Below, piece by piece: positions 102-20,470 of a stretch of DNA of 20,470 bases. Under the pieces are notes generated by a model. It saw nothing but the letters and a program-made list of their open reading frames with translations. It did not search any database and had not been told where the DNA came from. The translations under genes and the position numbers were made by a program. Within the stretch, counting starts at the first letter, position 1. Every line of letters starts with the position of its first letter. The stretch is from Actinomycetes bacterium (GTDB lineage: Bacteria > Actinomycetota > Acidimicrobiia > Acidimicrobiales > JAKAVM01): contig JAKAWH010000054.1 in assembly GCA_021817065.1 (NCBI GenBank), forward strand, positions 1-20,470. The letters are read 5' to 3'.

Positions 102-127
102 CGAGTGAATGCGCAGGTAGGAGGGCA

Positions 128-352
128 TTAATCTCCCTGGGGCGGTTGTCTCCTCGTCTATGTTTTGGCTCTGACCCAACGGGGAACCCGACAACCGGGA
201 GGAGGGTCATCGGTGGCAGGAAGCATCCGCCTGGTCAGGGGCGACGATGTGGGAACTCCGTGTCTGCCTGGGTCGTGATTCTCGGGGAAAAGTGCGCCAT
301 CTGCATCGCAGGTTCCGTAGTACCAAGCGCCAAGCCGAGAGGGACCGGGCCC
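128..352 (+). repeat. Copy A of a ~225-bp direct repeat, 27 bp downstream of tRNA-His
   Basis: Aligns colinearly with 4151..4376. The core from about 183 to 346 (~164 nt) differs at only 3 positions (ggagggtcatcgg vs ggtgggtcatctg; ccgtagtacc vs ccgtggtacc). The 5' 55 nt are ~75% identical with a 1-nt indel. No convincing ORF. Local stems such as CAUCG...CGAUG and CUGC-AUC-GCAG are present. Confidence 0.85.
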
Positions 353-1005
353 GCCTGGTCACCGAACAGGATTCTGCGCCCCGACGATCGCGCCGGGATG
401 AACCCCAGCTCCGCATGGAGCTCCATTTGTACAGCTCTCCGATGGTGACGAACGTCAGCCACGCCCCACCATCGATCTCGGGTCCTACCGACGTCGAGGT
501 CTACGGACCGAAAAAGCAAGGCACCGCCTACAACCACGCCGGCCAGCGCGCCTACAGGCCTCACCCGGCTGTGTGGGCCGAGGCAGGCTTGGCGAGCTCT
601 CGACGTGCTGATCGCCGGTTCAGGACCGTAGCCGCTTGAGGCAGTAACCGGCTACCAAACTGAGGCGATCGCACTGCAGCCGGCATCACGAATCACAACA
701 CTAAACCTCTTGGTCGAGCGCGCCTCGGTTTCGGGTAACCGTCACCCTCTACTGGCCGGAGCCTCCGCACCAGCTACTGGTACCGCTGGTTCGGGAGGTC
801 GGCGGCTTATTCGCGGATCCAGGTCTGACGACATCGTGCGGGACATGGGTATCGACGGAATCTGTATTCCCAGGTGACGCGAATGACCGTCGAGCTCCAC
901 AGGAAGGTCGCCGAGTTCCCCAATCGGGCCCTCATCAATGCCGCACCAGTCATTGCAGGCCAAGAAAAGTGGCCCTTGCCGCACACCGTGGAAGACAATC
1001 GAAAT

Positions 1006-1034
1006 GCTCCCCTCCGCGTCAAACGGAGGGGAGC
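1006..1034 (-). terminator. Candidate intrinsic terminator on the minus strand
   Basis: GC-rich 11-bp perfect stem gctcccctccg / cggaggggagc with a 7-nt loop. On the minus strand it is followed by the U-rich tract AUUUCGAUUGUCUUC. It lies in an ORF-free region. Confidence 0.3.
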
Positions 1035-1356
1035 CAACCCGAGAGCGTTGCGAGTCACTCCGAATCACAGTCGGCACTGCACGGCAGCACCTCCTGCTGC
1101 GACGGTTCGGGGAAACCCCTGCCCTCACCTGTATTTGTCGCCGAAACAGACCGGGATCTTTCACCCCGTGGGGAAAAATCGGCACACGAGCTGAAGAATC
1201 AGTTGGTGGGTGATCACACTGATGGATGACTTGACGCCGCCGCTGACTTCTCATATGCTTCGCGTCGGGTAGACGAAGTCGAACTGCGACGGCGGCAGAG
1301 TCAACCAGTTGAATAACGGTTGACCGGGGAGCATTGCGTTCCAGAAGGGCAGGACG

Positions 1357-2103
1357 ATGACGCACCTATCATGGCTGCGTGCAGCACGAGCAGCTGGCTG
1401 CGTGGCCGCAGCTGGGGCCCTCCTCTTGTTATCCACTGGTGCTGCTTATGCTGGGCAGTATGGCACCTACAATGGTGCTGCTGCAGCGCGCTACGCGGAC
1501 ACCTACTGGAGCAATTACAACATCGACTACGCCAGCTTCGGGGGGACAGACTGCACCAATTTTGTTTCCCAGGCACTCAACTCAGGCCCAGGTAATGCGG
1601 AGGACTATGGCAAGCCATGGGAACCGACGTATCTCCAGGAGCCGTTATACAACTACCCCTCGGTGGTTGATAACCCGGGTGATCTCTCATACTGGTATGG
1701 AGAACTGACTGGTTACGGTGCCAACTACTATTCCAACACATGGACTGTCGCTCCAGACCTCTTCTATTTCCTGACCTTTTACGACGGTTCTAGCTCCTAT
1801 TTCACCTATTCCTTCGACTATTATCAGAACGGAACTGCTCCTTCGATACCACCTTCAAATGCCCTGGGCGACCCCTTCTTCTACAATTGGGATGCAAGGG
1901 ATAACGGTGAGGGAATCTACGGTATCGATCACGCCACCATCACCGCCTATGGAGGCTGGGGTACCGACGGCACCTGGGGAACCGAGGTCGATGCCCACGA
2001 CTCCAATAGACAGCACGTGTTCTGGACGTTGAGATTCGTGCAAAATCCATCGAATCCCTATTGGCCCACGGAGGAGGTATTCACCGATCATGTCGTTAGC
2101 TGA
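1357..2103 (+). CDS. Secreted putative amidase, Amidase_6 / NlpC-P60-related domain
   Basis: N-terminal signal peptide MTHLSWLRAARAAGCVAAAGALLLLSTGAAYA|GQ. Motif YADTYWSNYN...FGGTDCTNFVSQAL matches the catalytic-Cys core (GGDCTNFVSQ) of the putative amidase (Amidase_6) family. Tyr/Gly/Asn-rich mature region with a C-terminal His (IDHATITAY). RBS-like gaagggcagga lies upstream of the ATG. Confidence 0.75.
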   Translation: MTHLSWLRAARAAGCVAAAGALLLLSTGAAYAGQYGTYNGAAAARYADTYWSNYNIDYASFGGTDCTNFVSQALNSGPGNAEDYGKPWEPTYLQEPLYNYPSVVDNPGDLSYWYGELTGYGANYYSNTWTVAPDLFYFLTFYDGSSSYFTYSFDYYQNGTAPSIPPSNALGDPFFYNWDARDNGEGIYGIDHATITAYGGWGTDGTWGTEVDAHDSNRQHVFWTLRFVQNPSNPYWPTEEVFTDHVVS

Positions 2104-2887
2104 TATGAGCCACCAGTCCACTAACCGCCGACGATTCGGCCAACGAGCGCGAGGAATGCTTGTGGTGAGCGCCGTGGCAGCGGGCGCCGGCTTCGGTGCG
2201 TCACTGGGGGTCGCGCACGGACAAGGAAATGACAGTGCCAAAGAAGCCGCTGTGAAGCAAGTATTCCTGGAAGCCCAAGTTCTTGGGGAGAATGAAGGGG
2301 CACCAGCTCCAGCAGGTCTCGCCAAATCCGCCGATTGGGCAGTCCATGGAGATTCCCTCGTCCACACCAAGAACGGCGACCGCCTCGAGAACCCCGGCCA
2401 CTCTTGGGTCGACGACTCCGGTCATGTATTGGGACTCTCAGCCGCAGAGGTCGCCCAGATCACCTCCCAGCAGGATGCAGAGGCAGATGCCATCCTCGCT
2501 CCTGGCAAGATCCGCACCAACTACCTTAACGCAATCAATGGCTGGGCAAAGAAAGGTGGTGAATTGGTGTCGTCGATGAGTCCTGCTGACGCGGTGTCGG
2601 CCATCAATAGCGTGGGTCCTGTTGGCGGTGCCGAAGTGGTCAAATGGGAGAGCATCGATATTGCTGGCACCACCGCTAGCGTCCACGCGGTGATGAAGAT
2701 TTGGAACGAGAACGACCAAGCCACACTCGACGGTCAGGGGAACCTACATGTAGCCACTGAGGTGGCATCCGGATACGGCGACTCCTATGCTACCTTGCAA
2801 GAGACTCCCTCCGGCACCTGGCAAATCGTTTCCATGGATACAGAACCTTCCGATGCCAACGGCAATACTGACGTCGCTTCCGGGTAG
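2090..2887 (+). CDS. Secreted hypothetical protein with a possible Tat signal (NRRRFGQ then a hydrophobic stretch)
   Basis: ATG overlaps the stop of the upstream gene by 14 nt, which suggests an operon. N-terminus has an RR motif followed by VVSAVAAGAGFGASLGVAHG. GC3-rich codon usage consistent with neighbouring genes. No recognisable catalytic motif. Confidence 0.6.
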   Translation: MSLADMSHQSTNRRRFGQRARGMLVVSAVAAGAGFGASLGVAHGQGNDSAKEAAVKQVFLEAQVLGENEGAPAPAGLAKSADWAVHGDSLVHTKNGDRLENPGHSWVDDSGHVLGLSAAEVAQITSQQDAEADAILAPGKIRTNYLNAINGWAKKGGELVSSMSPADAVSAINSVGPVGGAEVVKWESIDIAGTTASVHAVMKIWNENDQATLDGQGNLHVATEVASGYGDSYATLQETPSGTWQIVSMDTEPSDANGNTDVASG

Positions 2888-3575
2888 CTCGACAAGGACT
2901 GCTCCCTCCGGGCGCCGACGGGGACGACTATCCAAGCTTTGCAGAACCAGCTTCGTCTGGGCCGTGGTAGCCCTGGTGACCGCCATCGTTATTGTCGTAG
3001 TTATACCCAAGCAAAGTGCGACGACAGCTGCCGGGGAGAAGTCGGAGGTCCGCGCCGCTTTAGTACGTGCGGACACCCTGCGACTCATGATCGGTTCTCC
3101 CTGGCTCGCATCTCCCTCTCATTGGTCCATCGCAACCGGCACGTCCAGGGCTTCGTGGAACACCGGTGTTGGCACCAAGCCGATCCATCCATCATCAAAC
3201 CTGCTCGGAGCGATGGGCCGTGAACAGGGCTCTCTCATCAGCCAGTGGATGGGATCGTCAGTGGCAAGCAGTACTCGGTCACAGTTGGCTTCGGCCATCG
3301 GGGTCGACACCTCACGGGAGATCTTCCCTTGGGTTGCTCAGGTCTACGGTGTGTCCACGCAAACCATTGATATATCGGGCAACCAGGCAGGAATCCGGGC
3401 GAAGGTCTTTGCATGGCAGGGAGGTACGGTTCCCACCAGAAGCGGTCCCAAGCTTCTCAAATTGCGAATGGAGCTCGACGAGTACGCAACGTTCAAAATG
3501 GTTGGTGGGCACTGGCGAGAAGTGAGCGATCGAAGCTACGAGCACCCAGTCAGCGGGAATCCGGGGAACCTGTAA
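2787..3575 (+). CDS. Single-pass membrane-anchored hypothetical protein (alternative start ATG 2853)
   Basis: Long ORF in operon with the two upstream genes. Hydrophobic helix FVWAVVALVTAIVIVVVI follows a basic stretch RRRGRLSKL. No in-frame ATG lies downstream of the preceding stop, so the start must overlap the upstream gene. Confidence 0.5.
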   Translation: MLPCKRLPPAPGKSFPWIQNLPMPTAILTSLPGSSTRTAPSGRRRGRLSKLCRTSFVWAVVALVTAIVIVVVIPKQSATTAAGEKSEVRAALVRADTLRLMIGSPWLASPSHWSIATGTSRASWNTGVGTKPIHPSSNLLGAMGREQGSLISQWMGSSVASSTRSQLASAIGVDTSREIFPWVAQVYGVSTQTIDISGNQAGIRAKVFAWQGGTVPTRSGPKLLKLRMELDEYATFKMVGGHWREVSDRSYEHPVSGNPGNL

Positions 3576-3604
3576 ACCACGGGGGTACATCGAAGCCACT
3601 ATAG

Positions 3605-3634
3605 CCATCTCCGAGTATATCGACTCGGAGATGG
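3605..3634. promoter_or_regulatory. Perfect 12-bp inverted repeat CCATCTCCGAGT-(ATATCG)-ACTCGGAGATGG overlapping the start codon of the zinc-ribbon gene
   Basis: The arms are exact reverse complements. ATG 3631 lies inside the right arm. No U-tract follows, so an operator or translational hairpin is more likely than a terminator. Confidence 0.45.
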
Positions 3635-4011
3635 CGGGTGTGGGATGCTCGGTACCTATGCCCAAGACACCCCCAGCACGACTTGCCTCCTACGAGCACC
3701 GCTACCGAGATCTCGCCCGGCAGCTCTCTGAGATCGGCTGGATCGCTTCGGGCAGCGTGGCGTACCGCCCCGAGCGCTGTGGCAAGTCGAACTGCGCCTG
3801 CCGCTCGGACCCCGCACGGCTACACGGGCCCTACTGGCACTTCACCGCCAAGGTCGACGGCAAGACGGTGAACAAGCGCCTTTCCGAGCGTGAAGCCCGC
3901 CTATATCAACAGTGGATCGCCAACTACCGCACGGTGCGCGCTCTCCTCGGCGAGATGCGCGAGATCGCTGCCAAGGCCCAGGCCCTGATCCTCGCCGAGG
4001 ATGACGTCTGA
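3631..4011 (+). CDS. Small CxxC/CxC zinc-ribbon hypothetical protein (conserved actinobacterial DUF-type)
   Basis: 126 aa. Motif RCGKSNCACRSD...HGPYWHFTAKVDGKTVNKRLSEREARLYQQWIANYR resembles a widespread small actinobacterial protein family of unknown function. The C-terminus is predicted helical. Confidence 0.6.
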   Translation: MAGVGCSVPMPKTPPARLASYEHRYRDLARQLSEIGWIASGSVAYRPERCGKSNCACRSDPARLHGPYWHFTAKVDGKTVNKRLSEREARLYQQWIANYRTVRALLGEMREIAAKAQALILAEDDV

Positions 4012-4150
4012 CTCCGCCCGCAACAGGCAGTGTGCCGCTTCACCTGAAACCCGCCGCCCCACCTCACGCCGCCGGGCCTGAAGTGCTTGAAACACAGGGC
4101 GAATCGGTCATCCGAGCACGTGTGAGTGCCATTTCACGCTTGATTCAGGA

Positions 4151-4376
4151 TTAAGTTCCCTGGGGCGGTTGTCTGCTCGTCTTTTTCTGGCTCTGACCGA
4201 AATAGGTGACCCAACAACCGGGAGGTGGGTCATCTGTGGCAGGAAGCATCCGCCTGGTCAGGGGCGACGATGTGGGAACTCCGTGTCTGCCTGGGTCGTG
4301 ATTCTCGGGGAAAAGTGCGCCATCTGCATCGCAGGTTCCGTGGTACCAAGCGCCAAGCCGAGAGGGACCTGGCCGC
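4151..4376 (+). repeat. Copy B of the ~225-bp direct repeat
   Basis: See copy A. Same orientation, 4023 bp downstream. Identity decays at both edges. Confidence 0.85.
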
Positions 4377-4420
4377 AAGTGGAGCGGGGGAGTGCCCAAC
4401 CCGATTGCCGACGCCGAGCT

Positions 4421-4497
4421 GGCCGATCGAGGGCCGATCGAGGGCCGATCGAGGGCCGATCGAGGGCCGATCGAGGGCCGATCGAGGGCCGATCGCG
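4421..4497. repeat. Tandem 11-bp repeat (GGGCCGATCGA)x~7
   Basis: ggccgatcga then gggccgatcga x5 then gggccgatcgc. Each unit carries the palindrome CGATCG. The 11-bp period is close to the DNA helical repeat. Intergenic, ~150 bp upstream of the XRE gene. Confidence 0.9.
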
Positions 4498-4515
4498 ATA
4501 ATGATAGTATTATCG
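4496..4515. promoter_or_regulatory. AT-rich inverted repeat CGATAAT-GATAGT-ATTATCG, a candidate operator or -10 region upstream of the XRE regulator
   Basis: 7-bp arms are exact reverse complements. A strongly AT-rich island in GC-rich DNA that contains TAGTAT. About 130 bp upstream of ATG 4643. Confidence 0.4.
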
Positions 4516-4642
4516 AATGGCGCAGAAAGCCTGGTCGGTTGAGTTTCACCCGGCCTGCGGGAAGTGGGCTGGCAGACGAGAGATTCGAAGGGCACTTGGC
4601 AAACATGGAACCCGACAAGCAACTACACAGAAGAAGGCCACG

Positions 4643-4969
4643 ATGAAGATGAACCAGTGGGAGAAGAAGGTCCTCGCCAAGCCGGGCGCGCCTCAGCGGG
4701 TAGATGATATCGAAGACGAGCTTCGGCTCGCCACCGCCCTGACGGCGCTTCGAGAAGAGTCGGGCCTCAGCCAGCGGGAATTGGCCGAACGGCTCGGAGT
4801 TTCTCAGCCCAGGATCGTGGCGATCGAACATGCTCGCAATGTCACTCTCGACGTTCTCGAACAATACCTCGAAGGGCTCGGAGGGACTCTGGAGGTCTCG
4901 TTCTTCAAGGGGAACCGCAAGACCCGGCTCTTGGGGAATCAACGCCCGAGCGGCCGCAAGGCGAGCTGA
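4643..4969 (+). CDS. XRE-family helix-turn-helix transcriptional regulator
   Basis: HTH_3 signature ESGLSQRELAERLGVSQPRIVAIEHARN. RBS aagaagg lies 5 nt upstream of ATG. The ORF track extends further upstream to 4517 but no RBS or homology supports that. Confidence 0.75.
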   Translation: MKMNQWEKKVLAKPGAPQRVDDIEDELRLATALTALREESGLSQRELAERLGVSQPRIVAIEHARNVTLDVLEQYLEGLGGTLEVSFFKGNRKTRLLGNQRPSGRKAS

Positions 4970-5079
4970 CGACTCGCGGACCTTGGAAGTTGGGCGAAGA
5001 CCCAATATTTCACCCAATAGATCCGTTTGGTGGCGTTCTCCACCGAACCTTCCGCCCCGCGGCGTGGCACAGTAGGAGT

Positions 5080-11153: not shown

Positions 11154-11366
11154 GTGGTCGACAGTATGGATCAGCAGTTGGTGGGAACGGTGGGCCAAGT
11201 GACCGTCCCGATATCGAAGGACCGCCCGGGCGAGGTGATGCTCCCGGTTCGTGGAGGGACCGAAGCGTACGCCGCACTGTCCGACCAGCCGATCGCCAAG
11301 CACACCAAGGTGGTGGTGGTCGAATGCTTGTCCGGCCGTTCGGTCACCGTCACTCCATTCGACTGA
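11154..11366 (+). CDS. NfeD-family short protein (OB-fold beta-barrel domain), the usual partner of flotillin
   Basis: GTG start 8 nt after agaggagg (the track ORF begins at GTG 11148). Sequence VGQVTVPISKDRPGEVMLPVRGGTEAYAALSDQPIAKHTKVVVVE matches the NfeD C-terminal domain. Immediately upstream of the flotillin gene. Confidence 0.7.
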   Translation: MVDSMDQQLVGTVGQVTVPISKDRPGEVMLPVRGGTEAYAALSDQPIAKHTKVVVVECLSGRSVTVTPFD

Positions 11367-11392
11367 ACCGCATACACGAGGAGGCATAACGA

Positions 11393-12826
11393 ATGCTTTT
11401 CTGGCACGTTCCCGCGCCAAACGAGGCGCTTCTCATATCCGGTTCCCGGCGTCGCAGCCAGGAGACCCAGTTCCGGATCGTCACCGGTCACGGCTGCATC
11501 GTCTTCCCGATCAAGCAGAAGGCCCGTACCCTCTCCCTCGCTCTGCGCGAGTCGGAGGTCACCGAGGAATGTCTCACCACCCAAGGGATCCGCTTGCGCA
11601 TCCGGGCCATCGCCGCTTTCAAGGTCGGCGACGACCCGGTTTCCATCGCCAATGCAGCCCGGCGTTTCCTTGCAGAACAGGACCGGATGGAGGAGCTGGT
11701 CGGGCGGATCTTCGCCGGGCACCTCCGGTCGATCATCGGGAGCCTGACCGTCGAGGAGATCATCCGGGAGCGGGATCGCCTGGCTCAGGAGGTCAAGGAC
11801 GGTAGCCATGGCGAGATGGAGAAGCTGGGCATCGTGGTGGACTCGCTCCAGATCCAGGAGATCGAGGACGCGACCGGCTACATCAACAACATCGCCGCTC
11901 CTCACGCAGCGGCGGTAGCCAGCCAGGCCCGGATCGCCGCCGCCCAGGCCGACCAGGAGGCGACCCAGCGCGAGCAGCAGGCGGCAGCGCTGAAGTCGGA
12001 ATACGTACGCGACGCGGAGATCAAGCAGGCCGGGTTCGCTGCCGAAGTGGAGAGGGCCAAGGCCCAGGCGGCACAGGCAGGCCCCCTGGCGGAGGCCCAG
12101 GCGTCCCAGGAAGTGATCGCTCAGCAGACCCTACTCGCCGAGAAGCAAGCCGGTTTGACCGACAAGCTGCTCGAATCCGACGTGCGGCGTCCTGCCGATG
12201 CCGAGGCGTATAAACAGCGCACTCTGGCAGAAGCGAGCCGGGACAGCACCAAGATGGCAACCGAGGCGGAGGCTTTTCGCCAGCGGACCATGGCGGAAGC
12301 CCAGCGGGATACGGTGAAGTTCAGCACGGAAGCCGAAGCCAACCGGCAACGCACCATCGCTGCCGCCGAGGCGGAAGCGGCGACGGTTCGGGCGGAAGCT
12401 GAGGCCACCGCCCACAAGCACCAGGCCGACGGTGAGGCCTACGCTCAGCGCACGGTAGCAGCCGCCGACGCGGAATCCATCAACGCCCGCTCGGCCGCGT
12501 TAGACGACGGGAACCAAGCGCTCATTGCGGCCAACAAGCTGGTTGATTTGCTCCCGTCGTTGGTGGAAGCTGCCGCGCGGGGAATCTCGGCTTCCAACCT
12601 GACCGTCTTGAACGGCACGGACGGGGTCAATCAGGTGGTGGCCGGCGTAGTCGGCCAAGGCCTCACTATCTACGAGACCCTCCGCAAGTCCCTGGCCACA
12701 GCGTCGACCCAGCACGACGGGCTCGGGGCCCTGGCCCTTCCGGGTACCGACAGCGAGCGGGACGGCCCGGTAGCACGCGACGGCGTGCGAGCTGGCGGGG
12801 AGGCGGGAGCGCCCGGCGTCGATTGA
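11393..12826 (+). CDS. Flotillin-like SPFH/band-7 protein (FloT/YqiK type)
   Basis: N-terminus MLFWHVPAPNEALLISG and a band-7 domain. A long Ala/Glu/Gln-rich coiled-coil with EA repeats (AEAYKQRTLAEA..., AEAFRQRTMAEAQ...) is typical of flotillins. Strong RBS gaggagg sits 7 nt before ATG. Confidence 0.85.
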   Translation: MLFWHVPAPNEALLISGSRRRSQETQFRIVTGHGCIVFPIKQKARTLSLALRESEVTEECLTTQGIRLRIRAIAAFKVGDDPVSIANAARRFLAEQDRMEELVGRIFAGHLRSIIGSLTVEEIIRERDRLAQEVKDGSHGEMEKLGIVVDSLQIQEIEDATGYINNIAAPHAAAVASQARIAAAQADQEATQREQQAAALKSEYVRDAEIKQAGFAAEVERAKAQAAQAGPLAEAQASQEVIAQQTLLAEKQAGLTDKLLESDVRRPADAEAYKQRTLAEASRDSTKMATEAEAFRQRTMAEAQRDTVKFSTEAEANRQRTIAAAEAEAATVRAEAEATAHKHQADGEAYAQRTVAAADAESINARSAALDDGNQALIAANKLVDLLPSLVEAAARGISASNLTVLNGTDGVNQVVAGVVGQGLTIYETLRKSLATASTQHDGLGALALPGTDSERDGPVARDGVRAGGEAGAPGVD

Positions 12827-12894: not shown

Positions 12895-14409
12895 TCAATC
12901 CTCGAGGGTCACCCGCCACTCGTAGAGGCATCCGGAGGGACGTCGCTCCACCACCGACAATTCTCCTCCGTGTTCTCGGGCTCGGCTGGCGAGCCGGTTC
13001 AGCCATCGTGCCGATGCGGGCCCCTCGGGAATGCCGACCCCGTCATCGGAGACCGAGACGACCAGAGATAGGGCATCCACGGAGATGTCGACGCCCACCC
13101 GGGTGGCCATCGAATGGCAGGCGATGTTGTGGAGGATGTCGCCCAACGCTTCCAGGAGCGCATGTCGCAACTCGGCGGAGATGTGGGAGTCGATGGGGCC
13201 GGACCAATGAAGGGTCGGCTGGAACCCCAGCTCGATGGCAGCGTGGTCCACCATGTCCCGTACCCGAGTGGTGACCGGTACCGTGCTCAGGGGGGCATGG
13301 GTGAGGTCCTCGATCTCCCGCTCCAATTCCACGATCACGTTGCGCAGATCTTCCGAAGTTGTCTCGACCCGCTCGCGCACAATTCCTGGAACCAGGGTGG
13401 CGAGCCGATCCAGACGGGCACCGATCTTGTGGAGGGTGGCGATTACCACGTCGTCGAGGTCACTGGCGATCCGATGTTGATCGCTGACCAGCCGGGAGAC
13501 CGCGAGCTGGTTCCGGGTTCGATCGGCCACCATCGCCACTGCCACGGTGGAGGAGAAGATCTCCAGCAAGGTCTGCTCCAGTTCGGTGAAATCCGGCTGT
13601 CCCGGGGCACGGACGATGGAGAGTGCTCCGATCGCCTCGCCGTCGGCCGCGATCGGCACGACGATAGCGGGACCCAGACCGAGTGCTGCCCCATCGGGGT
13701 GGACGTTGTCGGAAAGGGCGAGATCGTGTATTCGTACTATTTCCCCGGTCTCGTAGGCATAGCCGGCGGCGCTGGAACCAGGCTCCATGTCCAGGCCGGT
13801 GAGATATGCGTAGTCCTCGTCGTCCGCACCGGCGATGACCATATGGCCGAGTCGATGGCTGGGAATCGACACGGTTCCCAGCTCGGCTCCGAGGAGGAGA
13901 CGGGCCTCCCTGGCTATCTGGGCGTAGATCTCGCGGGGAGTGAGGGCCGCCAGAAGCGCCCGGTTGATCTGGCTGACCGCTAGCAGGAGCAGCTCCACCC
14001 GGCTCGCTTCGCTCACGTCGCGCACGAAAGCCCCCACGAAGCGCTGACCGCCAATTTCTATCGGAGCAAGACTTACGTCAATAGGGAAGGTTGTCCGATC
14101 GCTCCGTACTCCGGAGATCCGCAGGCCGCTTCCCATCGGTCGACGATAGGGATCGGCTGCAAAGCGGCTCCGATGGTCGGCATGGGCCGACCGTAGGTCG
14201 GTTGGGATAAGTTCCTCGACGGACATACCGGCCAAGCCACCTGGACCGTAGCCAAAAAGTACCTCGGCGGCTGGGTTGCACCGGGTGATCGTCCCGTCTT
14301 GGTCGACCACCACGATCCCGTCCGGCATAGCTTCGAAAAGAGCAGCCAGGCCGGGAAGCGCCTCGATCGCCGCTCCGCCGGACGTGAGGTCGCCGGGAAA
14401 GCCGAACAT
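12895..14409 (-). CDS. PAS-GAF sensor histidine kinase (HisKA_3 + HATPase_c; partner would be a NarL-type response regulator)
   Basis: PAS domain (PDGIVVVDQDGTI...FGY). GAF domain. H-box RIASDLDDVVIATLHKI (HisKA_3). C-terminal ATPase with DDGVGIP and GGEL motifs. Start set at ATG 14409 (MFGFPGDL). The track ORF starts at TTG 14439. Confidence 0.8.
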   Translation of the reverse strand: MFGFPGDLTSGGAAIEALPGLAALFEAMPDGIVVVDQDGTITRCNPAAEVLFGYGPGGLAGMSVEELIPTDLRSAHADHRSRFAADPYRRPMGSGLRISGVRSDRTTFPIDVSLAPIEIGGQRFVGAFVRDVSEASRVELLLLAVSQINRALLAALTPREIYAQIAREARLLLGAELGTVSIPSHRLGHMVIAGADDEDYAYLTGLDMEPGSSAAGYAYETGEIVRIHDLALSDNVHPDGAALGLGPAIVVPIAADGEAIGALSIVRAPGQPDFTELEQTLLEIFSSTVAVAMVADRTRNQLAVSRLVSDQHRIASDLDDVVIATLHKIGARLDRLATLVPGIVRERVETTSEDLRNVIVELEREIEDLTHAPLSTVPVTTRVRDMVDHAAIELGFQPTLHWSGPIDSHISAELRHALLEALGDILHNIACHSMATRVGVDISVDALSLVVSVSDDGVGIPEGPASARWLNRLASRAREHGGELSVVERRPSGCLYEWRVTLED

Positions 14410-14506
14410 CAGCGAGTCTCTTCCCGGATGCCCGCGCAACAGAAGCCGAACATCAGCGAGTCTATTCCCGGATGCCCGCGCAACAGAAGCCGAACATCAG
14501 TGGTGG
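14401..14506. repeat. 44-bp tandem duplication (2.4 copies) at the junction of the two kinase genes
   Basis: gccgaacatcagcgagtctNttcccggatgcccgcgcaacagaa at 14401 and 14445, with a partial at 14489. It duplicates the RBS-ATG-MFGF region of the downstream kinase. On the minus strand the two mini-ORFs (12 and 15 codons incl. stop) start MFGF. Their starts overlap upstream stops as TGATG. Confidence 0.85.
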
Positions 14507-15609
14507 AAGACCGTTTCCCGAATCTGGCGGATCACCCCGTCGAGGTCGGCGATCGCCTTGTCGAGCTCGTCGGATATCGACACGGGGACGAGATGGGCGA
14601 TCCCGTCCAGGTCGATGCCCAGGGAGAAGATGTGGTTGATGACCCCTGAGTGGAGGGCGCGGGCGATGCGTTCCTGGGCGGCGGTGGTGCGGAGACCGTC
14701 GAGTTCACTGCGGGCCTGACCGAGCGACTTCACCACCGCCACTGCCGAGGCGAAGACCTGGCCACGCGATACCTCCTGCTCCGAGAATGCTGGTTCGTCC
14801 CGGGTACGGGCAACGACCAGGGTTCCCATGCGCCGGTCGTTGGTGGCGAGGGGGAGGTAAACTCCTGGCCCCATCTCCAGGGCGCGGGTAGCAGGGATCA
14901 CCTCCGGATCGGCGGACATGTCATCGATGTAGAGGGGCGTGCCGGATTCCATTGCACGTTGTGAAAGGGTTCCGTCGGCGGCGAATTCGGTCCCGAGCAT
15001 CGAGCCGGCGACACCGGCAGCGGCAACCACCACGAAGTTGCCGTTGGCACTGGGCGAGGCCACATAGGAGGTGGAGGCGTCGATGAGCTGGCAGACCCGG
15101 AAAGCGGTGTGCTGGAGAATCTCGTCGGTGGGTTGGTTGGTGAGAAGCATCTGGCTGATCTCGTTGACGAAGCGGAGGAGGAATTCGTTCCGCCTCCTCC
15201 CACTCGCGCCGCGTACGAAGGCGGCGACTTTGGCGCTGCCCGCCACCGAAAAAGGTGCCAGGCTCACGTCGATCGGCAGTTCGTGTCCCTCCGCGGTGCG
15301 CCCAACCAGGGCGAGGCCCACTCCCATCGGTCGGGACGCCGGGTTGGCGGCGAAGTGGCGGCGATGCCGGGCATGGCGGGACCGGAAGCTCTCGGGGAGG
15401 AGTATTTCGATTGAGCGTCCGACCAGGTCGGCAGGCCGGTACCCAAAGAGGTCCTCGACCGCCGGATTGGCTTCCTCGATGATCCCGTCGGCATCGACCA
15501 CCACAACGGCATCGGGCGTGGCATCGAGAAGGGCACACAGGATTGTTGCCTCGCCGAGCGCGGCATCGACCCCCAGGACGTCCAGGTCCTCGACGGAATC
15601 GGGCATCAC
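14497..15609 (-). CDS. PAS-GAF-HisKA_3 sensor kinase paralog lacking the HATPase catalytic domain (truncated or pseudogenised)
   Basis: Paralog of the downstream kinase with the same architecture and similar PAS motifs. The H-box ARALHSGVINHIFSLGIDLDG is present, but the ORF ends about 25 aa after the dimerisation/phosphoacceptor helix. No ATP-binding N/G boxes. Confidence 0.7.
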   Translation of the reverse strand: MMPDSVEDLDVLGVDAALGEATILCALLDATPDAVVVVDADGIIEEANPAVEDLFGYRPADLVGRSIEILLPESFRSRHARHRRHFAANPASRPMGVGLALVGRTAEGHELPIDVSLAPFSVAGSAKVAAFVRGASGRRRNEFLLRFVNEISQMLLTNQPTDEILQHTAFRVCQLIDASTSYVASPSANGNFVVVAAAGVAGSMLGTEFAADGTLSQRAMESGTPLYIDDMSADPEVIPATRALEMGPGVYLPLATNDRRMGTLVVARTRDEPAFSEQEVSRGQVFASAVAVVKSLGQARSELDGLRTTAAQERIARALHSGVINHIFSLGIDLDGIAHLVPVSISDELDKAIADLDGVIRQIRETVFHH

Positions 15610-15826
15610 CTGTGATTGTACGGTGCGCTCGGGGGGAATGGAGTGTGTGGCGATGTATTGGGAACGTCAATCCCCGATGTTTCCCTGCGCTCGCGGACCG
15701 GATCCGGGAAAAGGGGGGCTCCCGCAATTTCCCGGGGCAACCTCAGCCCGGGGGCAATTCTTGAGAAGGGGGGGTCCCTCCCCACCGACCCAGTCCCTCC
15801 GGAGCCTGGATTACTATCGTGCCCGA

Positions 15827-15901
15827 GCGCCTCTAGCTCAACGGCAGAGCAACGGACTCTTAATCCGCAGGTTCTGGGTTCGAATCCCAGGGGGCGCACC
15901 A
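15827..15901 (+). tRNA. tRNA-Lys (anticodon CUU)
   Basis: Acceptor GCGCCTC/GGGGCGC (7 bp, one G-U). D-arm GCTC-AACGGCA-GAGC. Anticodon arm CGGA/TCCG with loop CTCTTAA, giving anticodon CTT. T-arm CTGGG-TTCGAAT-CCCAG. Discriminator A. CCA is encoded. Confidence 0.85.
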
Positions 15902-16030
15902 AGAAGGAGCAGGGCAAAGGCCATAAATAGCGGCCTGACTCGATCCTCACTTCTCACGTTGCTATACCATGCTACACTAATCTTCCATGACCCCGGTGGC
16001 GGGGTGTAGCAAGCAGTGAAGGAGGACCTG

Positions 16031-17185
16031 ATGCGGGGGACGATGCGTCGTCGGGGGGATGCCTGGGAATTGCGCGCCTATGCCGGGCGCGATCCGGTCA
16101 CGGGCCGGAAGAAGACCGCGACCAAGACCTTTCGCGGGGGTAGCCGGGAGGCGGAGGAGGCGTTGGCAGCCTTCGTCACGGAGGTGGCCGGGGGAGGGCA
16201 CGCCGTTCAGGATGCGACGATGGGCGACCTGCTTCACCGGTGGTTCGACATGACCAAGGGAGACCTGTCCCCGTCCACGGCGAGGGAGTACGAACGGATC
16301 ATCAAGGTTCACATCCTCCCGACCTTCGGCAAGGTCCCGGTGGCCCGGCTCCGCACCGCCCAGCTCGATGCTTTCTACGCCAAGCTGCGCGACGGTGGGG
16401 GAAAGGACGGAAAGCCCCTCTCGCCCGCCACCGTCCGCCAGGTACACGCGGTATTGCGCAGAGCGTTGCGCCAGGCCGTGCGGTGGGAGTGGATCACGAC
16501 GAATCCGGCCATCCATGCCTCGCCGCCGCGGGTCACCAAGCCGCACCTGCAACCACCCTCTCCGGACGACGTGGTGGAGCTGATCGCGGTGGCCGACGAG
16601 TATGACGCCGACTTCGGGTGCTACCTGCGCGTGGCTGCGACCACCGGAGCACGCCGGGGTGAGCTGTGCGCGCTGCGATGGAGGGACGTGGACTTCGACG
16701 CGCCGGCGGTGACCATCAGTCACTCCATCGCCGAGGGGAGGGGACTGCGCCCGACGGAGAAGGACACGAAGACCCACTCGGCCCGCCGCATCGCTCTCGA
16801 TACCCTCACCGTGTCGGCATTGAAGAAGCACCGCAAGAAAATGGAGAGCCGCGCCAAGACATGCACAACGACGGTATGTGAGGACGGCTTCATCTTCTCG
16901 CGCGACCCCGACGGAGCGCGTCCCTGGCCCCCGAACGACGTCACCAAGTGGTTCATCGCTGCGCGCGCCAAGGCGGGTAAACAGAACGTTCGGCTGCACG
17001 ACTTCCGTCACTTCGCCGCGACCCGTCTGCTGGCAGCCGGTGTACCCGTGCGAACCGTGAGCGGGCGGCTCGGTCACGCCAATGCCGCGACGACATTGGG
17101 GGTCTACGCCCACTTCGTCGAGGAATCCGACCGGGACGCCGCCGACATCCTGGGCGAGCTGGTGGGCAGGGGGAAGAAGGGCTGA
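16031..17185 (+). CDS. int: Phage-type tyrosine recombinase/integrase
   Basis: Start ATG 16031 (MRGTMRRRGDAWELR) with RBS gaaggagg upstream. C-terminal catalytic residues within GARRGELCALRWRDV (Arg), LHDFRHFAATRLL (His-x-x-Arg) and LGHANAATTLGVYAH (the Tyr nucleophile). Confidence 0.9.
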   Translation: MRGTMRRRGDAWELRAYAGRDPVTGRKKTATKTFRGGSREAEEALAAFVTEVAGGGHAVQDATMGDLLHRWFDMTKGDLSPSTAREYERIIKVHILPTFGKVPVARLRTAQLDAFYAKLRDGGGKDGKPLSPATVRQVHAVLRRALRQAVRWEWITTNPAIHASPPRVTKPHLQPPSPDDVVELIAVADEYDADFGCYLRVAATTGARRGELCALRWRDVDFDAPAVTISHSIAEGRGLRPTEKDTKTHSARRIALDTLTVSALKKHRKKMESRAKTCTTTVCEDGFIFSRDPDGARPWPPNDVTKWFIAARAKAGKQNVRLHDFRHFAATRLLAAGVPVRTVSGRLGHANAATTLGVYAHFVEESDRDAADILGELVGRGKKG

Positions 17186-17186
17186 C

Positions 17187-17399
17187 ATGCCGAAGGCGAA
17201 ACAGGTATTGGTGGCCCTGAACCGCGATGGCTGGGTCGAGGTCAGGCGCAAGGGTTCCCACCGGTTCCTGATAAGGGGCGACGCCTACCAGACCTGGGCG
17301 TATCATGATGGGGACGACTTGGGGAAGACCGACCTCCGGCTGATCGGCAAGAGGTTCGGGTATTCCGTGGAGGCGCTTTACAGGATGTTGAGAGGTTGA
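17187..17399 (+). CDS. hicA: HicA-family mRNA interferase toxin
   Basis: 70 aa. Motif GWVEVRRKGSHRFL is the HicA signature (GW..R..GSH). ATG lies 1 nt after the integrase stop. Confidence 0.8.
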   Translation: MPKAKQVLVALNRDGWVEVRRKGSHRFLIRGDAYQTWAYHDGDDLGKTDLRLIGKRFGYSVEALYRMLRG

Positions 17400-17403
17400 A
17401 GCG

Positions 17404-17598
17404 ATGGACGTATTGATCGGTCTCTATCAGGACGAGGACACGCACCTATGGGGCTTCGACATCCCCGCCCTTCACATCATCGGCGGTGCGTGCCAGACGC
17501 GCGACGAAGCTATCGAGCACGCCAAGGAAGCCATCGCATTCACATTGGAAGAACGCCCCGACGAGCCGGGTTGCGAGGTCGTGGCTGTCGCGGTCTGA
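17404..17598 (+). CDS. hicB: HicB-family antitoxin (RNase-H-like fold, UPF0150)
   Basis: 64 aa. Follows hicA by 4 nt. N-terminal segment DEDTHLWGFDIPALHIIGGACQTRDEAIEHAKEAIAFTLE matches the HicB N-terminal domain. No DNA-binding extension. Confidence 0.65.
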   Translation: MDVLIGLYQDEDTHLWGFDIPALHIIGGACQTRDEAIEHAKEAIAFTLEERPDEPGCEVVAVAV

Positions 17599-17737
17599 GG
17601 GTCACGCGCTTCGCTGCGACCATATCAGCACCCCCCGTAGCCACCCTTTCCCTCTCCGTCAGTAAATCCGTGTTCACTTTCATAGTTACCACTCAGTAGC
17701 TATCACCGCGCTCGCGCGCTCTGCTTCACTGTCGGTC

Positions 17738-19555
17738 ATGTCCGAAGCACAACAGAGTTCCGTCATCACCGATGGTGGTCCGCAGGAAGCAGAATCTCGC
17801 TACCCCTGGGATACTCCAAGCAACGATCACCGAAGCGGCAACAGCGCGCAGACACCCGCGAGCAACGTTGCATCGCGCCGCAGGAAGTCCCCGAAAACCC
17901 CCGCCGTCCACCAACCTGCCAACCCCTACGCGCGTCCCACCGACCTCTACGGACGCACATTGGCGAGCTGGTCACGGCGCGCGATCGCCTACCTCATCGA
18001 CGCGGTGATCTTGACCGCGGTGTGGATCGGGGCCTGGATCGCTTCGGCCCTCGTAGGCACACACGCCATTGCCACCATCGTCAACATCCTCATCGACACG
18101 GTGTATTTCTCCCTGCTTGTCGCCGGGCCACGTGGCCAGACACCAGGGATGCGCACGGTCGGCATTGCGGTGCGGGATCGCAAGACAGGAGGAACCATCG
18201 GCTTTCGCCGTGCTCTTGTCCGGTCACTCACGATGGGGGTGCTCTCGGCGGCCCTCTACCTCCCCTTCGTCCTCGACTGCCTCTGGCCGCTGTGGGATAG
18301 CGAATACCAGAGCTGGCACGACAAGGCTGCCCGCACCCTGGTCGTGGAGGTGAATCCCACGCTCGGGACCTCCGGCTCCGCTCCATCTTTCACGGCCGCG
18401 ACGCCATTCACCGGGACAGGCGCGGCACCGGACTTCACCGGGACCGCTGCACGCCGGCAGATCGCGACACGCTTTCTCGCAGCGGTCCATCGTTGGCTCC
18501 ATGCGCGCACCCGGCGTTTCTGGCTTACCGCCGCCACAGTTGCAGCACTGATTGTCGTCGCAGCAGCCCTGATGGTCGCCACCACCTCCGTTCTAGCTGC
18601 CGAACACTCGCCGACGAAAGCAGCCACCGCGTATCTCAGCGCTTTATCGCGCAAAGATGCCTCCGCGATCCTTGTCTCCACCGGCATCATCGAGCCTTCC
18701 GTCATCGCCCCGGACACAGCGGTCCTGCTCTCGTCGCATGACATAGAACGGGAGCTTTCCGCCCCCGGCAACGGTCCGGGAACCATTTCCCATCTCGTCG
18801 TGGTCGCGTCCCACATACACGACAACACCGCCACGGTGACGCTCAGCTATGTAGCCGACAACCAGTCCCACATCGATACTTGCGACCTCGTGCGCTCCGA
18901 TCACACCGCCTCGGGCTGGGTCGTGCAGGTGACTCCCTCCCGTCTTGATGTGGACATACCGCAGGGAACCACTCATCTCACGGTCGCTGGCATCCCTGTA
19001 CGGACCACCGGAACCTTCGCCCACGTCTATCTCTTCCCCTCTGTCGTTACCGTCGCCACGCCTGCCACCGCCATCTTCGACGCGGCGTCCACCACCATCA
19101 ACACCACCCACCAGTCTGTGAACGCCGACTCCCAGGAAGCCTCCCTCGCTCCCCAGCTCACCGCCGCCGCGCAGTTCAGCGCCGTCAATGCGGTGGTGAA
19201 TCAGATCAACGCATGTCTCGCCGCCACGTCTCTCACACCGACCAACTGTCCCAACACTGACACTCCCGCTACGGAGTATCAGGGTGACACCTACTCAGGC
19301 ATTTCCTGGACCGGACTTGGCCAGCCCACCGCAGGCTTCACTGCCAACGTGAACAGGGCGGGCCAAGTCGAAGTGTCCGGTGCTTTCACCGCGGAGGTCA
19401 CTTACACCGACACGACACCAGGCTCATCATTTTTCGGTTCGGTCTCGGATCAAGAGACAGACGGCCCGACCTCGTGGAACTTCACTTACCCGCTCTCCTG
19501 GAACGGGACGGGATGGGTACTCGGGACCGTAAACGCGCAGACAGCGGACAACTGA
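17738..19555 (+). CDS. RDD-family integral membrane protein with a large Thr/Ala-rich C-terminal exported domain
   Basis: Pro/Ser-rich cytoplasmic N-terminus. RDD-like motif RRAIAYLIDAVIL plus 3 hydrophobic helices. A further TM helix WLTAATVAALIVVAAALMVATT. A 330-aa domain rich in T/A/V. Preceded by an AT-rich putative promoter at 17640-17737. Confidence 0.7.
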   Translation: MSEAQQSSVITDGGPQEAESRYPWDTPSNDHRSGNSAQTPASNVASRRRKSPKTPAVHQPANPYARPTDLYGRTLASWSRRAIAYLIDAVILTAVWIGAWIASALVGTHAIATIVNILIDTVYFSLLVAGPRGQTPGMRTVGIAVRDRKTGGTIGFRRALVRSLTMGVLSAALYLPFVLDCLWPLWDSEYQSWHDKAARTLVVEVNPTLGTSGSAPSFTAATPFTGTGAAPDFTGTAARRQIATRFLAAVHRWLHARTRRFWLTAATVAALIVVAAALMVATTSVLAAEHSPTKAATAYLSALSRKDASAILVSTGIIEPSVIAPDTAVLLSSHDIERELSAPGNGPGTISHLVVVASHIHDNTATVTLSYVADNQSHIDTCDLVRSDHTASGWVVQVTPSRLDVDIPQGTTHLTVAGIPVRTTGTFAHVYLFPSVVTVATPATAIFDAASTTINTTHQSVNADSQEASLAPQLTAAAQFSAVNAVVNQINACLAATSLTPTNCPNTDTPATEYQGDTYSGISWTGLGQPTAGFTANVNRAGQVEVSGAFTAEVTYTDTTPGSSFFGSVSDQETDGPTSWNFTYPLSWNGTGWVLGTVNAQTADN

Positions 19556-19599
19556 TCCCCGTGTACGCGCAGCACCTCCCAACTGCATCTCGCAAAAGG

Positions 19600-19806
19600 A
19601 TGCCTCATCGTTTCAAGCAATCCACCACGCTCGGTCTCGGCGTGCTGGCGCTGGCCGGATGCACGTCGACTCCCGTACACAGGACGACAGCGCGCCACCA
19701 TCACAACGACAACGACCGCGCACTCCACCGGTATCCTCCAGCTCCGACCGGTCCTGCCCTTCCCCCCGTCAACGGGACACATGGTTATGGAGCCAGCTTC
19801 AGCTGA
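19600..19806 (+). CDS. Small putative lipoprotein (lipobox LAGC)
   Basis: MPHRFKQSTTLGLGVLALAGCTST with RBS aaagga upstream. Low-complexity His/Pro-rich remainder. The 3' end overlaps the IS3 orfB terminus, so the reading frame may be chimeric. Confidence 0.35.
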   Translation: MPHRFKQSTTLGLGVLALAGCTSTPVHRTTARHHHNDNDRALHRYPPAPTGPALPPVNGTHGYGASFS

Positions 19807-20379
19807 CGATGTGCGTATCCTAGCTCCCACTCGAGCGGTGGGACGTTATCCAGTGTCGAGTGCAGCCATACTGTGTTGTAGCGGTGGATCCAGGCGATGA
19901 TCGCCCGGCGAGCCTCTGCCCGAGTCCGGAGCCGGTAGCGGTGCACCAGCTCGCGCTTGAGTGTCGCCACAAGTGCGCTCTCCCGGCTCTCCGGGGGTGA
20001 AGTCGCGTTGCACGAGATCGGGCAGTGGAGGCGCCGTCACGTCGGGGATCGTCGTCTTGACCTTTGGCCGGCGTCCGTCCTTGGCGTAGATTCCGTTGTC
20101 GGCCATGAGGGGCTCGACGCGCTCGTGGTTGGCGTGGATCCCGTGCTGGCGAGCCAGCTCGTTGACCATCCGGGGCGAGCCGACCGAGTCGTCGATCGCC
20201 TGGACGTCGATCATGGCGTTGACGACGTGGGCGTCGTCCCATTCGGCGTCGGTCGGGCCGTGGGCGCGCTCGGTCGCCCAGTCGTAGAAGGCCGAGGTCG
20301 ACACCCCGGCTGCCTCACAGGCTGCCGCCACGGGGAAGCCCGCGACCCTCTGGCAGTCGACCCAGCAATAGCGGCTCAC
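19785..20379 (-). pseudogene. IS3-family transposase orfB with an internal deletion of ~170 codons of the DDE core
   Basis: N-terminal part (20379..~19966): RYCWVDCQRVAGFPVAAACEAAGVSTSAFYDW...MADNGIYAKDGRRPK...PDLVQRDFTPGEPGERTCGDT (the W.GDITY region). It joins out of frame directly to the C-terminal part (19970..19785): ATLKRELVHRYRLRTRAEARRAIIAWIHRYNTVWLHSTLDNVPPLEWE. The catalytic core in between is missing. Confidence 0.75.
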
Positions 20380-20470
20380 TGGTCCGACTCCTTCACCCAG
20401 AAGGCCACTGCTCGTTTGAGCAGTTCGCGATCTATGGTCAGGCGCTTCACCTCCCTGCGGAGTCTGGCCA
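20376..20470 (-). CDS. IS3-family transposase orfA, C-terminal part (the gene continues beyond the window)
   Basis: Minus-strand translation ...ARLRREVKRLTIDRELLKRAVAFWVKESDQ* is the typical leucine-zipper tail of IS3 OrfA. Its stop overlaps the orfB start (GTGA). Confidence 0.7.
   Translation of the reverse strand, partial: ARLRREVKRLTIDRELLKRAVAFWVKESDQ

Follow-up and report, generated by a model that had tools for sequence, protein, structure and literature searches.

The closest known counterparts of the locus considered here are the DevS/DosT-type kinases of the HisKA_3 family and the uncharacterised PAS-GAF-HisKA_3-HATPase_c kinases found in metagenome-assembled genomes (MAGs) of Acidimicrobiales. 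The locus consists of two adjacent genes on the minus strand, referred to as k2 (the upstream open reading frame (ORF), 14497-15609) and k1 (the downstream ORF, 12895-14409), and lies within a stretch of 20,470 nucleotides, “the window”, of contig JAKAWH010000054.1 from the Actinomycetes bacterium assembly GCA_021817065.1 (Acidimicrobiales). Both genes share the domain order of these kinases, with identities to the single-gene relatives of 43-49% for k2 and 34-40% for k1. Unlike k1 and k2, however, the relatives are single full-length genes in which the H-D-x-x-x-Q motif and the G2 box are intact (35 of 35 full-length relatives inspected), whereas k2 is devoid of the catalytic (CA) domain and of the DxxxQ motif, and k1 lacks both the phospho-accepting His and the G2 glycine. 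A second point of comparison is provided by the haem-PAS sensor FixL: in both k1 and k2, the PAS domain resembles the haem domain of Bradyrhizobium FixL (1y28, 1dp6) with E about 1e-15, and the NCBIfam FixL model matches partially over the PAS region, but the transmitter part of k1 and k2 is of the HisKA_3 type and degenerate, a GAF domain is inserted, and the proximal His is missing from orthologs in a distant lineage.

Shrivastava et al. reportedly described in 2007 that the ATP-binding part and the His-containing part of the mycobacterial kinases HK1 and HK2 reside on separate proteins. Reviews list the HK1/HK2-TcrA system of Mycobacterium tuberculosis (Rv0600c/Rv0601c/Rv0602c) as a single regulator served by two sensor kinases (PMC3544749, PMC9321153), and the adjacency of two kinase-like genes is what it has in common with k2 and k1. 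The two differ in that k1 and k2 both carry full sensor modules, that their operon holds no regulator, and that the k2 His is not conserved in its ortholog and has lost its catalytic neighbour residue. Pseudo-histidine kinases, such as DivL, NifL and PsmA, are missing catalytic features, are nevertheless conserved, and signal by protein contacts (PMC4211667, PMC12963549, PMC12632262); in contrast to these, k2 and k1 form a tandem, probably coupled pair of paralogs, one reduced to a dimerization and histidine phosphotransfer (DHp) hairpin and one without His, with FixL-type PAS and GAF domains as inputs. Finally, termination-reinitiation at ATGA/TGATG overlaps is established (PMC6728339), and PPE2 expression in M. 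tuberculosis depends on an upstream open reading frame (uORF), the stop codon of which overlaps the main start codon (PMC11260477). The k2-k1 junction resembles these cases in its stop/start overlaps, but here the junction itself is tandemly duplicated, resulting in a chain of overlaps bridged by junction-derived mini-ORFs that is not conserved outside the lineage. Comparison of the sequences suggests, with a probability of roughly 0.55, that the locus is a conserved two-gene module of translationally coupled, paralogous pseudo-histidine-kinase sensors with FixL-type PAS domains, in which an 88-nt repeat between the genes is lineage-specific and the mini-ORFs are by-products.

The features of the two genes on which this proposal rests are the following:

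12895-14409, minus strand: k1, 504 aa; PAS, GAF, His-less DHp and partly degenerate CA domain
13453-13455, minus strand: GAC codon of k1 Asp319, at the phospho-accepting His position (RIASDLDDVV versus ERIARDLHDTV in the family)
13003-13005, minus strand: codon of k1 Trp469, at the near-invariant glycine of the G2 box (ASARWLNRL versus G-x-G-L-x-N)
14497-15609, minus strand: k2; PAS, GAF and DHp only; 369 aa from the ATG at 15606 or 370 aa from the GTG at 15609
14650-14652, minus strand: CAC codon of the k2 H-box His, within ERIARALHSGVIN; Asp at H+1 replaced by Ser, Gln at H+5 by Asn
15615-15620, minus strand: TACAAT, resembling a -10 hexamer; upstream of both possible k2 starts, at distances of 5 nt (GTG) and 8 nt (ATG), with no Shine-Dalgarno (SD) motif in between (window 15604-15620), so that k2 may be translated from a leaderless mRNA

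An earlier note on this DNA had delimited both genes correctly and had called them paralogous, which is borne out by 37% identity across PAS, GAF and DHp (E 1e-50). The PAS-GAF-HisKA_3 architecture that it proposed holds in part: PAS and GAF domains score above the Pfam cut-offs in both proteins, whereas HisKA_3 remains sub-threshold in k2 (21.4 bits versus a cut-off of 24) and yields no match in k1 at E <= 0.1, where HATPase_c is sub-threshold as well (21.1 versus 26.4). Neither protein reaches an NCBIfam equivalog cut-off, and NCBIfam has no named equivalog for them. On the input side, by comparison, nearly all family-invariant PAS and GAF residues are retained. The k2 PAS domain aligns with the FixL haem domain (E 9e-16 to 1y28) such that its RSRH matches the RSRH motif of the proximal His, a residue that is invariant in the family and kept as His76 in k1 and His79 in k2 (370-residue numbering). 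Both proteins thus combine similarity to the FixL haem domain with a proximal His, as expected of a FixL-type PAS domain, for which haem binding is a prediction.

On the output side, full-length relatives are characterized by ERIARDLHDTVIQRLF in helix 1, IREIRETIF in helix 2, LSNVARHA in the N box, DDGVG in G1 and G-x-G-L-x-N in G2. The acidic residue beside the His is needed for kinase activity and the DxxxQ motif for phosphatase activity (PMC3510030), and in a published survey, 0.3% of the sampled HisKA_3 domains were His-less (PMC12632262). The H-box of k1, HRIASDLDDVVIATLH (D-D-V-V-I-A), has Asp at the His position and has lost the Gln; relative to the family, k1 carries H319D, Q324A and G469W, and 12 family-invariant DHp columns differ. 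In its CA domain, the N-box Asn428 and the G1 motif DDGVG (DxGxG) are retained, and G467A, G469W and N472R alter family-invariant residues. The nearest solved structures to this domain are the ATP-binding domains of DosT and DevS (3zxq, 3zxo; E 1.5e-8 and 3.4e-6). An AlphaFold2 model of k1 (mean predicted local distance difference test score, pLDDT, of 85) shows PAS, GAF, a DHp hairpin made of helices 276-337 and 343-370, and then a CA domain with an alpha/beta fold, for which the pLDDT is about 90 across residues 379-501; the structural matches of the model are multi-domain sensor kinases and phytochromes, with NifL among the top ones. Judged by predicted fold, the catalytic domain of k1 is a genuine CA domain that is partly degenerate; the label “true kinase”, which had been attached to k1, does not fit a protein in which Asp has replaced the phospho-accepting His and Trp the G2 glycine, two changes that recur in its ortholog (see below).

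The H-box of k2, ERIARALHSGVINHIF (H-S-G-V-I-N), retains the His and has lost the Asp at H+1 and the Gln at H+5; in k1 numbering, the substitutions against the relatives are D317A, D320S and Q324N. In alignment with full-length relatives, the k2 C-terminus (...IRQIRETVFHH*) lies two residues past the conserved IRETxF motif of helix 2. Hence, k2 was correctly said to be without HATPase_c, but it does not end right after the H-box helix: the DHp hairpin is complete with both helices, and the catalytic ATPase domain is absent. In sum, both proteins depart from a HisKA_3 kinase with respect to the H-box His (absent from k1, and in k2 not shared by the ortholog), the acidic H+1 residue and DxxxQ motif (Asp and Gln both lost in k2, Gln in k1), and the Pfam HisKA_3 cut-off.

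Word-based protein searches and a scan of species-representative genomes retrieved single full-length kinases only, at no more than 49% identity and mostly from Acidimicrobiales MAGs, and no tandem kinase pairs among them; these relatives are orphans or stand beside a REC-GerE regulator. An exhaustive HMMER search with k1, by contrast, found two protein fragments, P0154 (65% identical, k1 residues 99-268) and P0168 (51%, k1 residues 289-502), that are encoded on one contig, L094; the same locus is present in a second assembly, L095, with a GC content of 52%. The pair L094/L095, here called lineage B, represents distant Acidimicrobiales (46-52% identity; GC 52% versus about 64%), and the 90% cluster of a lineage-B protein includes another protein whose name assigns it to an Acidimicrobiales bacterium. 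Both genes occur there side by side. The k2 ortholog, k2B, has 382 aa and ends in IRQIRELVFNK*, at the same truncation point as k2; S-G-V-I follows the His position as in k2, but the His itself is replaced by Gln (ENIVQELQSGVIH). The k1 ortholog, k1B (L095 2862-4376; L094 1342-2800), comprises 504 codons and aligns with k1 without gaps over 503 codons at 52% identity. The unusual motifs of k1 recur in it as RIAEDLDNVV (Asp for His), NIACHSMAT, ASARWINRL (Trp for Gly) and GCLYEWRV. The proximal His of the FixL-type PAS domain is retained in neither k1B nor k2B. The stop of k2B and the start of k1B overlap directly (aaATGAtt), and no 44-nt unit of the kind described below is found at this junction.

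Between the window lineage and lineage B, dN amounts to 0.42-0.49 and dS is saturated, which indicates long-term purifying selection on both genes. The two proteins therefore present what defines a pseudo-histidine kinase, i.e., a kinase-like fold, lost catalytic residues and maintenance by selection, with losses common to orthologs at 46-52% identity. A recent tandem duplication of one kinase, followed by a frameshift, was considered as an origin of the pair and rejected: k1 and k2 are only 37% identical, they are not sisters in a neighbour-joining tree, and the pair predates the split from lineage B. The scenario of a single intact kinase in related genomes with a frameshifted duplicate in this strain is likewise not what the orthologous locus displays, which carries the pair as well, and a truncation point common to a lineage only 46% identical speaks against k2 being a recent pseudogene, as suggested earlier, or a duplication/deletion scar of k1.

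Within the lineage of the window, exact or near-exact copies of k1 and k2 were found on contigs of GCA_027388435.1, GCA_027388385.1 and GCA_027388455.1 and of ENA and Logan assemblies, among others, with about 99% identity between these contigs and the window. No related contig that includes the two ORFs completely has a disrupted copy of either. In k1, nine synonymous and six non-synonymous changes were counted, a synonymous excess (Fisher p = 0.006).

The region between the two genes is organized as follows:

14456-14499, minus strand: repeat copy 1, TGATGTTCGGCTTCTGTTGCGCGGGCATCCGGGAATAGACTCGC; begins with the k2 stop TGA, directly after ...TTC CAC CAC; T at 14464 creates a TAG
14412-14455, minus strand: repeat copy 2, equal to copy 1 except for G in place of this T; matches the inferred ancestral unit
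14399-14411, minus strand: partial repeat copy 3, TGATGTTCGGCTT; contains the mini-ORF2 stop and the k1 start and continues into k1
14462-14497, minus strand: mini-ORF1, MFGFCCAGIRE, stop TAG; the A of its ATG is shared with the k2 TGA (14499-14497)
14409-14453, minus strand: mini-ORF2, MFGFCCAGIREETR, stop TGA; the A of this TGA is shared with the k1 ATG at 14409

Tandem Repeats Finder reports a repeat with a period of 44 nt at 14399-14500 (2.3 copies, 98% matches, score 197), and a 29-nt core of the unit has exactly two occurrences in the window, as against none in 100 shuffles. The 88-nt insert consists of two tandem units. Each contains the TGATG of the junction and the initial 11 nt of k1, together with a body of 31 nt in which a weak SD-like motif is found. 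The tandem duplication of a segment comprising the SD-like motif, the ATG and the MFGF codons, as noticed before, is thus real, and so are the stop/start overlaps, since TGATG links k2 to mini-ORF1 and mini-ORF2 to k1; the link from mini-ORF1 to mini-ORF2, however, is a 9-nt gap after the TAG in the window, without overlap. All three TGATG motifs and the two mini-ORFs result from the 2.3 tandem copies. They are not an independent coincidence: the 44-nt unit starts with TGATG, is 2 mod 3 in length and stays open in the frame of its ATG, so that tandem repetition yields the mini-ORFs automatically. Because two units add 88 nt, k2 and k1 share a reading frame, and the combined stretch amounts to 904 codons with one internal stop, the genes being separated by a single TGA and 29 sense codons. 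As a side aspect of this geometry, read-through of the TGA, or a point mutation in it, would fuse k2 and k1 (minus strand, 12895-15609) into a 904-residue double-sensor protein.

When exactly two 44-nt units are removed, the sequence reads CAC CAC TGATG TTC GGC TTT CCC, a direct stop/start overlap that is colinear with lineage B. Since this removal restores the overlap, the alignment of k1 with k1B begins at Met1, and k2 and k2B have a common end point, the 88 nt seem to have been inserted into an ancestral coupling junction in this lineage specifically. The tandem state is by definition the derived one, and we infer that the direct stop/start overlap was the ancestral state. The genes are co-directional, stop/start overlaps link them via the mini-ORFs in the window and directly in lineage B, and there is no convincing terminator between them: terminator-like sites are limited to a single weak one, below the number that chance would give, and no promoter-like site was found between k2 and k1. 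The motif GGGAAGAG in repeat copy 2, 8-16 nt upstream of the k1 ATG, is SD-like, but weaker than the GGAGG at other genes of the window. Translational coupling, proposed earlier for this junction, gains support from the direct ATGA overlap at the orthologous locus. A TTG at 14439 as an alternative start of k1 can be dismissed, as it is TTT in the other spacer haplotype and the gapless alignment with the ortholog starts at the Met1 encoded by the ATG.

The copy number is exactly two in 9/9 related contigs that span the spacer, and no copy-number variants of the unit were found among them. Two spacer haplotypes exist: that of the window, in which a G-to-T change in copy 1 creates the TAG, and another in which copy 1 is intact, copy 2 has two changes, and mini-ORF1 has 14 codons and ends in a TGATG overlap, giving three consecutive TGATG overlaps. 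The three substitutions read as E-to-stop, C-to-F and R-to-Q in the mini-ORF frame and all change the mini-peptides; the spacer diverges at 3/87 nt versus 0.8% in the flanks (p = 0.036), and the comparison of the two haplotypes gives no sign of constraint on spacer sequence or mini-peptides. Likewise, folding of the spacer RNA is not significant (z-score of -1.63; 13/200 shuffles fold as well), and Rfam contains no match to the spacer even at E <= 1. Two Logan short-k contigs (L089 and L092) stop inside the first 44-nt unit, which fits a real repeat that breaks de Bruijn graphs, and copy-number calls from such assemblies call for caution.

Several sources of the unit were considered and discarded. 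Derivation of its body from the 3' end of k2, with which it shares ATCCGGGAA (“IRE”), is not supported by local alignment, which is no better than for shuffles (p = 0.23). As a relic of the DHp-CA linker of the family (G-[ILV]-R-x-x-V-R), the mini-ORF sequence AGIREETR would raise the score of the k2 end against a hidden Markov model of the linker by only 0.9 bit. Nor does the unit appear to be a dispersed repeat or the end of a mobile element: the 31-nt body and its 13-mer occur nowhere else in the window or related contigs, two metagenome scans came back empty, and no exact copy of the 26-nt core of the body was found in JGI metagenomes.

From these observations, a mode of action can be envisaged. 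Both k2 and k1 would be cytoplasmic PAS and GAF sensors with a catalytically degenerate histidine-kinase output half, presumably co-transcribed and ancestrally coupled in translation by direct stop/start overlap. In the lineage of the window, the junction would have gained the 88-nt insert, whose tandem repetition by slippage or unequal exchange might have created the chain of mini-ORFs. Ribosomes that finish k2 could then re-initiate along this chain, aided by the SD-like GGGAAGAG in each unit, so that the expression of k1 stays linked to that of k2. Such a relay probably preserves the ancestral coupling with some attenuation, and neither the peptides nor an RNA element would be under selection, the relay being a by-product of the duplication. 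The two proteins most likely form a stoichiometric heteromer mediated by their DHp hairpins that signals by protein contacts instead of canonical autophosphorylation. A heteromer of two pseudo-histidine kinases is suggested because the catalytic losses are conserved and co-inherited and the direct overlap is conserved.

The losses in k1 and k2 can be given another meaning, namely that of a split histidine kinase, in which the ATP-binding domain of k1 phosphorylates the k2 His in trans within a DHp heterodimer and phosphorylated k2 passes the phosphoryl group on to a NarL-type regulator, along the lines proposed for HK1/HK2-TcrA of M. tuberculosis. In the window lineage, the losses are indeed complementary, with a His but no CA domain in k2 and a CA domain but Asp for His in k1, and the N-box Asn and G1 DDGVG of k1 are retained. 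However, with Gln at the His position of k2B, His phosphorylation cannot be the conserved function of the module, and both k2 proteins have Ser in place of the acidic H+1 residue that kinase function needs (PMC3510030), which together weaken the earlier idea of k2 as a phosphoacceptor partner; in addition, k1 and its ortholog both have Trp at the G2 glycine. As to the regulator, strains without the inserted element described below carry a REC-GerE gene 0.36 kb upstream of k2 on the same strand, but this gene overlaps its own GAF-HisKA_3 kinase with intact H-box, a divergent tRNA-Lys lies between it and k2, and no regulator stands beside the pair in lineage B. A NarL-family regulator, for which a search nearby had been proposed, is absent from the operon, and the nearest one already has a kinase. 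A split kinase is thus unlikely as an account of the module, and phosphotransfer to the k2 His by the CA domain of k1, which would be possible in the window lineage only, is disfavoured.

The junction invites a different proposal, according to which its duplication was itself selected, and serial termination-reinitiation, or Cys-codon-dependent translation of MFGFCC..., sets or modulates the ratio of k1 to k2. Two copies are fixed in both haplotypes with all three TGATG motifs intact, the weak SD-like motif of k1 may make it dependent on upstream translation, and uORF-dependent expression via stop/start overlap has precedents in Actinobacteria (PMC11260477). Yet the orthologous locus does without the repeat and has a plain ATGA overlap, the mini-ORF chain is an automatic outcome of the unit geometry, all three substitutions alter the peptides, and one of them truncates mini-ORF1 and weakens the next SD-like motif in the window. 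Given also the lack of spacer constraint, of significant RNA structure (z = -1.63) and of an Rfam match, an adaptive relay is improbable, somewhat more so than a split kinase; the relay once envisaged for this locus shows no sign of selection on the peptides and is interrupted by the TAG. Still more doubtful, to the point of being a long shot, is the combined model of an obligate heterodimeric haem/GAF pseudokinase sensor with a subunit ratio set by coupling, a junction that acts as a selected, copy-number-tunable relay with one termination-reinitiation step per unit, and read-through that produces the 904-residue fusion.

Several observations weigh against a conserved, functional pseudokinase module, and some of them would suit the view that k1 and k2 are what is left of duplicated kinases that no longer function, in an operon on its way out, with the 44-nt repeat as a neutral scar. 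Both genes have lost catalytic motifs, the rate of change in the spacer is no lower than that at synonymous sites, and mini-ORF1 has suffered a nonsense change. In k2, four substitutions were found within the lineage (one synonymous, three non-synonymous), so that its non-synonymous rate is not below the synonymous one, although four changes are uninformative on current constraint. In lineage B, codon 74 of k1B is an in-frame TAG in the two assemblies alike, located in the region of the proximal His of k1, with the remaining 503 codons open, and in L094 it has additionally suffered a 56-nt deletion between 12-nt direct repeats (AATCGTYCGCAA) that causes a frameshift; in this lineage, the module may hence be decaying or no longer needed. 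Neither k2 nor the TAG-bearing k1B need be under constraint at present. Moreover, k2 of the window lineage retains its His, and some phosphoryl chemistry may persist; the direct overlap as ancestor is not rigorously polarised by two lineages only; and the comparisons with the k2 3' end, the linker, contigs and metagenomes yielded no source for the 31-nt body. Decay of both genes is nevertheless about as unlikely as a split kinase: dead genes would hardly remain intact in all related contigs that hold them whole, nor would k1 be expected to align without gaps over 503 codons to an ortholog of different GC content with NIACHSMAT, ASARW[LI]NRL and GCLYEWRV conserved, and dN of 0.42-0.49 against saturated dS, the synonymous excess in k1 (p = 0.006) and the retention of nearly all PAS/GAF family-invariant residues all argue against decay. 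Coupled pseudo-histidine-kinase sensors thus remain the preferred interpretation.

The k2-k1 bicistron is bounded by the divergent tRNA-Lys (15827-15901) and by a convergent Band_7 gene, and contains no response regulator, nor is there one next to the pair in lineage B. Beyond the tRNA, window positions 15905-20470 are occupied by an element integrated at the 3' end of tRNA-Lys(CTT), with the following contents:

16016-17185: tyrosine integrase
17082-17399: HicA-like toxin
17404-17598: 64-aa ORF, candidate HicB partner
17738-19555: RDD-domain protein
19846-20379, minus strand: IS3-type HTH_Tnp_1/HTH_21 ORF

In its place, the related strains L001 and L091 have the GAF-HisKA_3 kinase and REC-GerE regulator referred to above, which in L001 lie beyond the tRNA at 1013-2856, overlap by 4 nt and constitute an ordinary coupled two-component pair (H-box of the kinase, RLAIELHDSVAQ). 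At the other end of the window, about 4.9 kb (127-5041) directly after tRNA-His(GTG) (28-102) are absent from the otherwise 99%-identical L001 and look like a second tRNA-associated island. Two products could be assigned in this stretch, and several of its other ORFs have no Pfam match:

1357-2103: Amidase_6 protein
3631-4011: DUF6788 protein

The Band_7/SPFH gene (11393-12826) is affected by a further difference, as 1.4 kb (11242-12667) are missing in L001 and L002 and present in L086 and L088; L087 and L090 are without the gene. Its product contains internal AEA..QRT repeats. The 1.4-kb difference has a 62-nt repeat at its flanks and could reflect a deletion between repeats or an assembly collapse.

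If the proposed interpretation is correct, the Acidimicrobiales harbour a conserved, coupled pair of sensors, one reduced to DHp and one without His, both of which have complete FixL-type PAS and GAF modules. To our knowledge, no conserved two-gene arrangement of such pseudokinases has been described. This would not establish a new principle, as pseudo-histidine kinases and stop/start coupling are already known, but it would provide a tractable case for how kinase-dead sensors signal. Moreover, the direct overlap in one lineage and the 88-nt chain of junction copies in another would amount to a small natural experiment on termination-reinitiation, in which the cost or benefit of relaying ribosomes via mini-ORFs should be measurable from the two junction states.

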